DNA from: Escherichia coli | GTDB taxonomy: Bacteria; Pseudomonadota; Gammaproteobacteria; Enterobacterales; Enterobacteriaceae | DNA length: 64,000 nt | Assembly: GCF_003334815.1 (NCBI RefSeq) | Contig: NZ_QOWO01000022.1 | Direction: 5' to 3' (one strand) | Shown here: piece by piece, positions 20,334 through 21,920 of the stretch | How positions within the stretch are numbered: the stretch's first letter is position 1 | Layout of the letters: each line of letters starts with the position of its first letter | Notes under the pieces: model-generated | Databases searched by the model: none | What the model saw: only the letters and a program-made list of their open reading frames with translations | Told to the model about the DNA's origin: nothing | Translations under genes and position numbers: made by a program

Positions 20334-21920
20334 TCAATTATGACAGTCGCTCTCATTTGGTTGTCTCTGGTTAGATGTATTATTAGATATTTTCGGGGTA
20401 ATTCGATAAAAGTTATCCACTTCAGCACCAGACTGAATGATATATGCAATAAGATCTAAACGATGAATCTCGTATCGTGTACGTAACTCCATCATTTCAC
20501 GCCATGCTAAAATCCTTGATGTTTTCAGTTCAGCCTCTATAAGTTTCCATGTGTTTGTTGAGATGGCATGTTCTTCCAGCTGACGTAACGAGAACCTATC
20601 ACTAATGACCAACCATCCCCATCCTCGAGTATGTGCCCATTTGCGACCTGCATTACTTTTTATTCTCGTGAGACTCAAGGTCATTCGGTCTGTTGGCTTC
20701 ACTTCCATAAGTAGGCACCGACCATCAACTGTCGCAATGAGTAAATCTGGATAGTATTTTTTTGATTTGTTTTTAAAACAATATGGAATAGAAAATGGTT
20801 GTTCTTGATAGAAAAGAACCTGATCGCAACATTCTAATAGATTCATTATTTTAAACTCAAGCCCTGATTCGTACTGGACTGTACGACCTAATTTTTGAGA
20901 GTAAAAGAATCCAGATATGTCAGTATCATTAACCGCTCTCTGTGAACATAGCTGTTCTACGGGGGGAGGAGGTGCGATATATTTTGGCCAATGTGTATTG
21001 TCTAGCCATTTACTGAATATGAACTCAACTCTTTCTTTCTTGATTCGGGCTCTTTCCTGAGCGCGAGCGTGTGCTAATTCTGCTCTTCGTTCACGTAACC
21101 TCTGCTTTTGTAATTGTGATATTAATGAGAGCGAATTTTTTATTTCATCTCGTCTTGCTTTAGGAATGCCTGCGGTAAAAATAATGAATTTGGCGGCTAA
21201 CTCAGAGGATGTAACGAAATCCCGATGAACAATACGATAAATCCATACTGCTATATCATATGGTGAATTACCTATTGAGTTAATAAGGGCTTTAAGGCAA
21301 GCTCCTGGTGTCCCTTCATAGCGAGATTTAGCAGCTAGTAAGCCAAGGGCTCGTTCCTGAAGTTGTCTTACCCTTTCACGGGAAATTCCTAATTTGACGG
21401 CAATATCTGCCAGAGAATGAGGTGAATCATCTGTGCCGAGTCGCATTAGAAGAATATATTGATGTCGTTTATTAGATAAACTTTCGATAGCGGAATGAAT
21501 TAGCATAATGACATCATGTTCATCGGCTATATAATCTTTAAAATCTGTATTGGGTTGGCAGAGGGGGAGTGGGGTATTTTGTTTAAAACTATTCTTTTGT
21601 ATTTCAACTTTATCATGAGCAATTGTTTTTGCAGTGCTCAATGATATTAAATTATTGATGATACTATTGTGTTCTTGGCGAGGAATCTTGTTGAAGTAAT
21701 TGCTGAGATCATTCACAGTGTTTATATCGTTGAACTCAAGAAACTCAGAAGGAAGCAGGCGTTTGATTGCTCCACGTATTCCCCCGGACGATCGTTGATG
21801 TGTTTGAGTAAGTTTTTTTAGCGAGACGCCCTCCGCTATGGATACGAGAAGACGCTGTAACTCTTCAGTATTCCATGGAGTACCATGTCGTGCTGGAAAA
21901 TTGCTGCGGGATTCAGACAT
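20334..21920 (-). CDS. Uncharacterised fusion protein: sigma-70 region-4-like HTH domains plus C-terminal PD-(D/E)xK (TnsA-like) nuclease fold
   Basis: 528 aa, AT-rich. Clear HTH in HQYILLMRLGTDDSPHSLADIAVKLGISRERVRQLQERALGLL, with a second HTH-like segment near the N-terminus. C-terminal YESGLEFKIMNLLE ... YYPDLLIATVDGRCLLMEVKP matches the E...D...E-x-K restriction-endonuclease-like motif. Confidence 0.6.
   Translation of the reverse strand: MSESRSNFPARHGTPWNTEELQRLLVSIAEGVSLKKLTQTHQRSSGGIRGAIKRLLPSEFLEFNDINTVNDLSNYFNKIPRQEHNSIINNLISLSTAKTIAHDKVEIQKNSFKQNTPLPLCQPNTDFKDYIADEHDVIMLIHSAIESLSNKRHQYILLMRLGTDDSPHSLADIAVKLGISRERVRQLQERALGLLAAKSRYEGTPGACLKALINSIGNSPYDIAVWIYRIVHRDFVTSSELAAKFIIFTAGIPKARRDEIKNSLSLISQLQKQRLRERRAELAHARAQERARIKKERVEFIFSKWLDNTHWPKYIAPPPPVEQLCSQRAVNDTDISGFFYSQKLGRTVQYESGLEFKIMNLLECCDQVLFYQEQPFSIPYCFKNKSKKYYPDLLIATVDGRCLLMEVKPTDRMTLSLTRIKSNAGRKWAHTRGWGWLVISDRFSLRQLEEHAISTNTWKLIEAELKTSRILAWREMMELRTRYEIHRLDLIAYIIQSGAEVDNFYRITPKISNNTSNQRQPNESDCHN

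Follow-up and report, generated by a model that had tools for sequence, protein, structure and literature searches.

The gene studied here occupies positions 20334..21920 on the minus strand of a 64,000-nucleotide stretch of Escherichia coli DNA (RefSeq assembly GCF_003334815.1, contig NZ_QOWO01000022.1), which is called the window throughout this text. The open reading frame (ORF) starts with ATG and encodes a protein of 528 amino acids, in agreement with the position and length given in a preliminary description made from the letters alone. From its sequence and a structural model, the product can largely be recognised as a stand-alone predicted DNA endonuclease with several DNA-binding modules and an intact active site, in which a complete sigma-70 region 4 is joined to a TnsA-type PD-(D/E)xK nuclease within one polypeptide. 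We tentatively read it as an autonomous DNA-targeting nuclease that would act in defence or in conflict between mobile elements, and we give this role a probability a little short of even.

The window is part of an I-complex plasmid; over 2.4 kb it shows 100% identity with pMRY16-002_3, which is typed as IncK2/Z. The protein is 100% identical to the product of an annotated plasmid gene, and the context of its start codon, MSE...FP.RHG, is common to the relatives. The guanine-cytosine (GC) fraction is 0.37–0.43 over the gene and 0.55–0.60 over the neighbouring tra genes.

Domain organisation and predicted active site

An AlphaFold2 model of the protein was built on 142 relatives, with a mean predicted local distance difference test score (pLDDT) of 91.2. 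The N-terminal helical domain (residues 10–100; 21621..21893, minus strand) consists of a Myb/GcrA-like three-helix helix-turn-helix (HTH) at residues 18–55, with the motif RHG.PW..EE...L, and two more helices at residues 65–100. This domain is present in ~44% of the sampled family members. Profile searches of Pfam and the PDB with a 13-sequence alignment of the domain gave nothing significant, and the structural likeness to GcrA and Myb is the sole remaining lead to its nature. It is followed in the model by a disordered linker (residues 102–121).

Sigma-70 region 4 is complete, with both 4.1 and 4.2, and forms four helices at residues 134–198 (21327..21521, minus strand) according to Pfam and PDB profiles and the model. 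The Pfam Sigma70_r4 profile (PF04545) matches residues 150–193 with an E-value of 2.2e-8. By PDB profile search the region is nearest to primary sigma factors (E ~1e-15), and the closest solved structures include the phage/anti-sigma complexes 1tlh, 2p7v and 4g6d. Its identity with the C-terminal sequence of E. coli sigma-70 is ~35%. R554, R562, L573 and T583-R-E-R-I-R-Q589 of sigma-70, the residues in contact with the −35 element, align with R152, R160, L170 and S180-R-E-R-V-R-Q186 of the present protein. In the conservation count, made over 142 relatives that are only 20–60% identical, these positions are mostly kept in 131–141 of the sequences; E182, R183, R185 and Q186 are kept in 137–141, position 180 is serine or threonine in 138, and R181 is kept in 114. 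Compared with RpoD/SigA, the 4.1–4.2 arrangement is the same and the contact-aligned positions are retained, whereas region 4 lies within the chain here, with extra helices and a nuclease behind it. The protein was also considered as a true sigma factor, and this identity was rejected; region 4 of the sigma-70 family is present, whereas none of regions 1.2, 2 and 3 was detected.

Behind region 4, a helical bundle (residues 205–249) leads into a single charged helix of 54 residues (residues 254–307), the two spanning 21000..21308 on the minus strand and being modelled with pLDDT >95. The length of the long helix differs by 7–10 residues among relatives. As it links the DNA-binding half of the model to the nuclease half, this helix may be a spacer or a dimerisation element.

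The TnsA-type PD-(D/E)xK nuclease domain comprises residues 330–440 (20601..20933, minus strand), with its alpha/beta core at residues 337–439 in the model, and contains E351, E355, D392, E406 and K408 together with E373-Q-P375. The Pfam profile Tn7_TnsA-like_N matches residues 366–440 with an E-value of 1.8e-11. In a phmmer alignment to the TnsA of a CRISPR-associated transposon (CAST; E 4e-4), CESSLE is paired with YESGLE, YTPD with YYPD and EYKP with EVKP. Because of this motif alignment, the active site is assigned to E351/E355, D392 and E406-x-K408, which has the E...D...(Q/E)xK form typical of TnsA in a PD-(D/E)xK domain. The preliminary description had rightly seen an HTH, a sigma region 4 and a TnsA-like PD-(D/E)xK nuclease combined in one gene of a low-GC insert. 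It had placed the catalytic residues at about 372, 405 and 418–420, however, and these positions have to be replaced by E351/E355 (in YESGLE), D392 (in YYPD) and E406-x-K408 (in EVKP). Among the relatives, D392 is kept in all 142, E355 in 141, E406 in 139 and K408 in 136, and position 351 is glutamate or aspartate in 137.

The C-terminal helical domain (residues 445–510; 20391..20588, minus strand), whose helices occupy residues 445–497 in the model, is positioned like the C-terminal domain of TnsA, as judged from the model and from Foldseek, whose alignments to the TnsA structures 1f1z and 1t0f extend over 222–234 columns of targets with 260–264 residues. The NCBIfam search returned sub-threshold matches only, to TnsA-like and sigma families.

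The ratio of nonsynonymous to synonymous substitution rates (dN/dS) of the gene is 0.09–0.13 against 60%-identical relatives and 0.26–0.32 among close relatives. These ratios, together with the conserved residues of region 4 and of the catalytic centre, show that selection keeps both the predicted DNA-reading surface and a putatively working nuclease site.

A mobile single-gene cassette

The gene lies in a cassette of 1841 bp (20265..22105, minus strand), the junctions of which were read out from a blastn comparison with the sister plasmid pRM10042-1 (locus L008). In pRM10042-1 the same pnd and excA flanks are found at 98% identity and the cassette is absent, an unrelated stretch of 157 bp (4367–4523 of L008) standing in its place. 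The GC content of the cassette is 39.3%, against 51.0% for the window, so that the AT-rich islet of the preliminary description is confirmed with sharper limits. Its flanks, excA on one side and hok/pnd on the other, are also as described there, and the gene does stand alone, since no neighbour is conserved among the 35 loci compared. Terminal inverted repeats or a target-site duplication were looked for at the junctions 20265 and 22105, and none was seen. The pnd–excA interval is a variable slot in I-complex plasmids. Two IncI1 plasmids (L009 and L010) have small ORFs there, together with dqlB, which encodes a DinQ-like toxin, and in at least one IncI1 plasmid finQ is found on the other side of pnd.

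Cassettes of ~89% identity occur in Pectobacterium, in Salmonella and on a Providencia plasmid, which are three unrelated contexts. The segment shared at this level consists of the gene, ~130–165 bp upstream and 100–240 bp downstream, and the outer flanks are unrelated. It is largely shown that the cassette, ~1.8–1.9 kb in size, is self-contained and undergoes horizontal transfer, its carriers being plasmids, genomic islands and at least one phage. A 58-bp stretch just upstream of the Providencia cassette (9771–9828 of L013) reappears with 91% identity near the integrase end of the Pectobacterium island (21281–21338 of L002), and could be related to recombination or attachment.

The family comprises 458 representative clusters at 50% identity (E ≤ 1e-30), and its core, made up of region 4, the linker and the nuclease, is about 370–400 residues long. 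The hosts are scattered over Enterobacterales, Xanthomonas, Methylococcales, Streptomyces, Rhodococcus, Prauserella, Chloroflexi, Melainabacteria, a Firmicute and myxobacteria, so that Proteobacteria, Actinobacteria, Firmicutes, Chloroflexi and Melainabacteria are all represented. Among complete E. coli genomes the gene is present in 269 of 5426, and every copy is plasmid-borne. Decayed copies, whether truncated, interrupted by an insertion sequence (IS), internally deleted or frameshifted, are met both in the E. coli genomes and in PLSDB plasmids. On plasmids, copy H55 retains residues 1–319 only, H65 is split into two ORFs, H103 carries an IS1 insertion and H113 has lost about 1.37 kb internally; in H110–H112, which are E. 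coli plasmids of 150–181 kb, the 5′ end alone is left, and some of these remnants are annotated as 'RNA polymerase subunit sigma-70'.

A scan of 2.9 million viral contigs in IMG/VR gave at least two full-length relatives. One of them (L020) is 98% identical over 5.5 kb to a Mangrovibacter island (L015) that bears an integrase and lies beside smpB. The other, with 35% identity, is found at 8001–9554 of L021 (IMGVR_UViG_3300026284_000096), a high-GC contig of a genuine phage, where it is flanked by an internal-virion-protein gene (phrog_511, 3e-87) on one side and structural/major-head genes on the other, and is inserted in the opposite orientation. This is the position of a moron or of a free-standing nuclease. 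A phage origin of the family was considered and rejected: the matches to PHROGs are at the domain level only, L020 is island-like, and L021 alone is a real phage contig among the matches listed.

The gene has been described before under another name. On the epidemic IncK plasmid pCT, pCT_066 was reported as an "unusual putative RNA polymerase sigma factor" and served for PCR-based detection as a marker (Cottell et al. 2011, PMC3377399). Its replacement by aph left plasmid stability, host growth and biofilm formation unchanged (Cottell et al. 2014, PMC4083329), and pCT_066::aph also showed unchanged conjugation to E. coli or Salmonella, with a competition index of 1.00 (PMC4083329). The two published 40-nt recombination arms map to 21795–21834 and 20650–20689 of the window with no mismatch, which identifies the window gene as pCT_066; in both cases, moreover, the gene is flanked by pndACB and the tra locus. 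By these arms, the knockout removed residues ~43–410 and thus took in region 4 and the catalytic core. The conjugation assay on pCT covered donor function only. In the pCT_066 papers the protein was read as a sigma factor and its nuclease half went unrecognised, in contrast to the sigma-region-4 and TnsA-type nuclease fusion recognised here. Our literature search found no later paper on pCT_066.

Candidate roles of the nuclease

As to how the protein might act in defence or conflict, we propose that the HTH modules would bring it to a composite site in duplex DNA, probably one that is long or conditional, and that the nuclease, once so placed, would cut the DNA. With a single gene, the cassette would then arm its carrier against DNA that enters the cell, be it a phage or a rival plasmid. 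Because −35-like hexamers would be met everywhere in host DNA, the enzyme should need a longer composite site, for which there are three DNA-binding modules and possibly dimerisation through the 54-residue helix, or else modified DNA, a particular DNA structure or a signal of infection. Host DNA might accordingly escape because the composite site is rare, because cutting depends on the modification or structure of the DNA, or because the enzyme becomes active only in infected cells.

Several observations are in keeping with this role. The pnd–excA slot is variable among I-complex plasmids; in E. coli the cassette is purely accessory, confined to plasmids and in some copies decayed; and the pCT_066 knockout revealed no housekeeping or transfer role. 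There is also a precedent, in that the PD-Lambda-3_A cluster is named a TnsA N-terminal-domain protein. Furthermore, defence genes lie within ~6 kb of the gene in ~7 of 17 independent loci, a suggestive frequency that was obtained on part of the neighbours and with no matched control. In the Pectobacterium locus (L002) the Gabija genes GajA and GajB are immediately upstream (E 1e-269 and 1e-230), and McrBC is in the same integrase-bounded island. The Xanthomonas locus (L004) has a Lamassu-like LmuB-like gene, SIR2_2 and GmrSD, the Salmonella locus (L011) the BREX genes BrxA/B/C/PglX, and the Providencia plasmid (L013) BovA of Borvo immediately upstream (2e-128). A type IIG restriction-modification enzyme is found in Buttiauxella (L040), an HNH nuclease in Serratia (L041), and PD-Lambda-4_A (1.5e-247) in the Firmicute Ornithinibacillus (L057). 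The defence role raised in the preliminary description receives circumstantial support from relatives that adjoin known defence genes.

The Pectobacterium island holds a further three-gene operon between the sigma4-TnsA gene and McrBC (12150–17274 of L002, plus strand), encoding proteins of 734, 643 and 327 residues. Neither of the two large proteins is matched in PADLOC or NCBIfam, and the third has only weak ZorA/MotA-like (8e-6) and Rad50-like (4e-5) matches. The operon is a candidate for an unknown defence system.

A number of points weigh against a defensive role. The surroundings are ordinary genes in Streptomyces, Archangium, Yersinia frederiksenii, Serratia grimesii and several metagenome-assembled genomes, and the defence neighbours amount to just ~7 of the 17 independent loci, on the partial and uncontrolled count given above. 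Among the catalogued defence models of PADLOC 2.0.0, the sole match is a weak one to SspB (5e-4) and falls over the HTH region. Our literature searches found neither a defence role nor a phage or plasmid challenge reported for the gene. A region 4 that reads −35-like hexamers would meet thousands of sites in the host, so that restraint is required, and the relative inside the phage module of L021 could equally well be a selfish nuclease or a defence moron.

A selfish nuclease is indeed the strongest rival, although we regard it as unlikely. The gene would spread for itself, in the manner of free-standing homing endonucleases or addiction-type nucleases, with no benefit to the carrier, and would cut alleles without the cassette or otherwise promote its own insertion. 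Such a life would agree with a one-gene cassette that has sharp boundaries and a known empty-site allele, with the near-identical cassette in three unrelated contexts of three genera, and with the opposite-orientation relative among phage structural genes, which is the classic position of a free-standing homing endonuclease. The null knockout phenotype and the plasmid copies that are truncated, IS-interrupted, internally deleted or, in one case, split into two ORFs are also in its favour, and the three DNA-binding modules suggest a long, rare site. However, the insertion contexts share no flanking sequence, so no common homing site is apparent, and there are no terminal repeats or target duplications. 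The dN/dS of 0.09–0.32 with catalytic and DNA-binding residues kept across phyla, the recurrence of defence-island neighbours, and the finding of 2 full-length relatives among the matches listed from 2.9 million viral contigs also argue against it. The target of the nuclease might instead be other plasmids: a factor in entry exclusion, fertility inhibition or incompatibility versus rival conjugative plasmids, with no anti-phage role, would suit a gene placed directly downstream of excA in the variable pnd–excA slot. The presence of finQ beside the same pnd locus in IncI1 plasmids, the restriction of E. coli copies to plasmids and the plasmid-borne Providencia relative point the same way. As the relatives outside E. 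coli are mostly chromosomal and lie beside anti-phage systems or ordinary genes, we consider this role quite improbable.

The published annotation implies a sigma-like transcription factor or RNA polymerase modulator, whose nuclease fold would be structural or regulatory only and whose region 4 would bind −35-like elements or the RNA polymerase beta-flap and reprogramme plasmid or host transcription. In favour of this, region 4 is present in full and resembles primary sigma factors most closely, the residues aligned with −35-contacting positions are nearly invariant, and relatives are named sigma factor or sigma factor-like by NCBI and in the pCT papers. On the other hand, a purely regulatory domain would not need the active site that is nearly invariant in 142 relatives, deletion of residues 43–410 in pCT left conjugation, stability, growth, biofilm and fitness unchanged, and the distribution is patchy and cassette-like; we think this explanation very unlikely. 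The regulatory role in plasmid biology that the preliminary description had entertained is disfavoured by the null pCT_066 knockout and the nearly invariant catalytic residues. Region 4 might also be a bait that mimics that of host sigma-70, the protein acting as a guard or decoy that watches the transcription machinery. Phage proteins are known to seize or remodel sigma region 4, such as the T4 AsiA-type appropriators and the phage G1 gp67-type factors; these sigma-region-4 binders, or an RNA polymerase beta-flap vacated during takeover, would engage the bait and thereby set the TnsA-type nuclease free. Since the residues aligned with DNA-contact positions are nearly invariant, plain DNA binding is the simpler account, and we see the bait as a long shot.

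A subunit of a Tn7-like transposon was rejected as the identity of the protein, as there is no TnsB- or TnsC-like neighbour in 35 loci and no transposon ends were found. In Tn7 and CAST, TnsA functions only with TnsB and TnsC in a transposon with defined ends, and neither is seen for this gene; the present nuclease differs from these TnsA proteins also in ~300 extra N-terminal residues with two HTH domains. The neighbourhoods of the 35 loci were compared all-against-all, and the genome scan used a 12-sequence nuclease alignment. No operon with TnsB and TnsC was found, and no neighbour family occurs in more than 4 of the 35 loci. Three loci outside the family (L061, L063 and L064; about 10001–13600) match in the nuclease core only, with 31–37% identity. 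In each of them the match is followed by shared genes of 654 and 348 residues, in an arrangement that would fit a tnsABC-like operon. Such a linkage would therefore have been detected in the solitary family had it been present. That the gene is a relic or orphan of a Tn7-like element, a TnsA left behind or acting in trans with a transposase encoded elsewhere, could be argued from TnsA being the closest solved structure, from the CAST TnsA sequence match (E 4e-4) and from the match to NCBIfam TnsA_like_Actin (NF033179) with 46.8 bits. That score is far under the cut-off of 110 bits, however, and the family loci lack TnsB- or TnsC-like neighbours, unlike L061, L063 and L064. Moreover, the fusion to sigma region 4 is constant over the family (458 representative clusters, E ≤ 1e-30), transposon ends are missing and the gene is under purifying selection, all of which makes a relic extremely improbable.

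If the protein is a one-gene defence or conflict nuclease, its nearest counterparts in layout are the Mrr-type type IV enzymes and Shedu. In these, a single polypeptide has DNA-binding or sensor domains towards the N terminus and a PD-(D/E)xK nuclease at the C terminus; they have no cognate methyltransferase and occur sporadically on mobile elements and in defence islands. The general layout is the same as that of our protein. No sequence relationship to them is detectable with PADLOC, however, and the DNA-binding module is here a sigma region 4, for which we found no description in Mrr-type or Shedu enzymes. A TnsA_N-type nuclease is component A of the catalogued anti-phage system PD-Lambda-3. 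That system has two genes (A and B), no sigma region 4 is reported for its component A, and our protein has no PD-Lambda-3 match in PADLOC, which should include these models. Assignment to a named defence system was rejected, with NCBIfam scores of 27 bits against a cut-off of 800 for MzaA and far below the cut-off for the BPTD_3080 restriction enzyme. The preliminary description could not match the architecture to a named system, which is borne out as far as the defence catalogues (PADLOC 2.0.0) go, and no characterised transposase or housekeeping regulator was matched confidently over the full length. Literature searches found no paper on a sigma region 4 combined with a TnsA nuclease. The protein is not mentioned in the text and supplements of the DefensePredictor paper, nor in the texts of further defence-discovery papers and a BREX survey.

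The TnsA fold, sigma region 4 and the Myb-like HTH are each familiar, and single-protein defence nucleases are a known kind; defence candidates of this sort are now common. The carriers are epidemic I-complex (IncK, IncB/O/K/Z-type) resistance and virulence plasmids, on which a 15-year-old "sigma factor" annotation can be corrected. Reading the product as a sigma-region-4-guided TnsA-type nuclease would also explain the null transfer, stability and fitness assays. Should the role be defensive, it would constitute a new single-gene system with a DNA reader borrowed from the transcription machinery, and would be relevant to the ways in which successful resistance plasmids protect their hosts or combat rival elements. 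Should the gene be selfish, it would represent a free-standing mobile endonuclease of a new type, with the TnsA fold as its basis.

Transcriptional setting and other genes of the region

Upstream of the nuclease gene lies excA (22194..22847), which scores 278 bits with NCBIfam NF033891 (cut-off 100). A terminator-like hairpin of excA was found by the terminator scan at 22161–22139, just upstream of the cassette. The upstream region of the cassette itself is AT-rich and 185 bp long (21921..22105, minus strand), with promoter-like sites at 22048–22020 and 21994–21966, and the palindrome TTATCTATAAAAGATAA was read in it at about 22006–21990. In a consensus scan, sigma-70-type promoter-like sites were no commoner upstream of the gene than in shuffled sequences, and the promoter assignment is tentative. 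Because of the terminator-like hairpin of excA and the AT-rich upstream region with its weak promoter-like sites, the nuclease gene looks like a transcription unit of its own.

On the opposite side, the hok/pnd (Hok/Gef) ORF (20044..20196, plus strand) is convergent with the nuclease gene, and a second terminator-like hairpin from the same kind of scan (20287..20309, plus strand) lies between the two, inside the edge of the cassette. A sok-type antisense RNA is located at 19890..20046 (Rfam RF01794, 124.5 bits, gathering score 59), and 19890–20196 forms a complete hok/sok-type (pnd) addiction locus.

A phosphoethanolamine transferase gene is found in the same low-GC accessory stretch (17841–19376, plus strand). 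It reaches 108 bits with the CptA/EptA-type NCBIfam model, against a cut-off of 404, and its matches to MCR are very weak; it is not a known mcr gene. Upstream are a gene for an S6-family autotransporter peptidase (about 11357–15448, minus strand), a thermonuclease-family gene (about 15813–16316) and a gene for an ECs1377-family protein at 16475–17098 (NCBIfam 293 bits, cut-off 190), with coordinates mapped from an annotated twin plasmid. The accessory genes at about 11357–17098 suggest a virulence-type IncB/O/K/Z plasmid.

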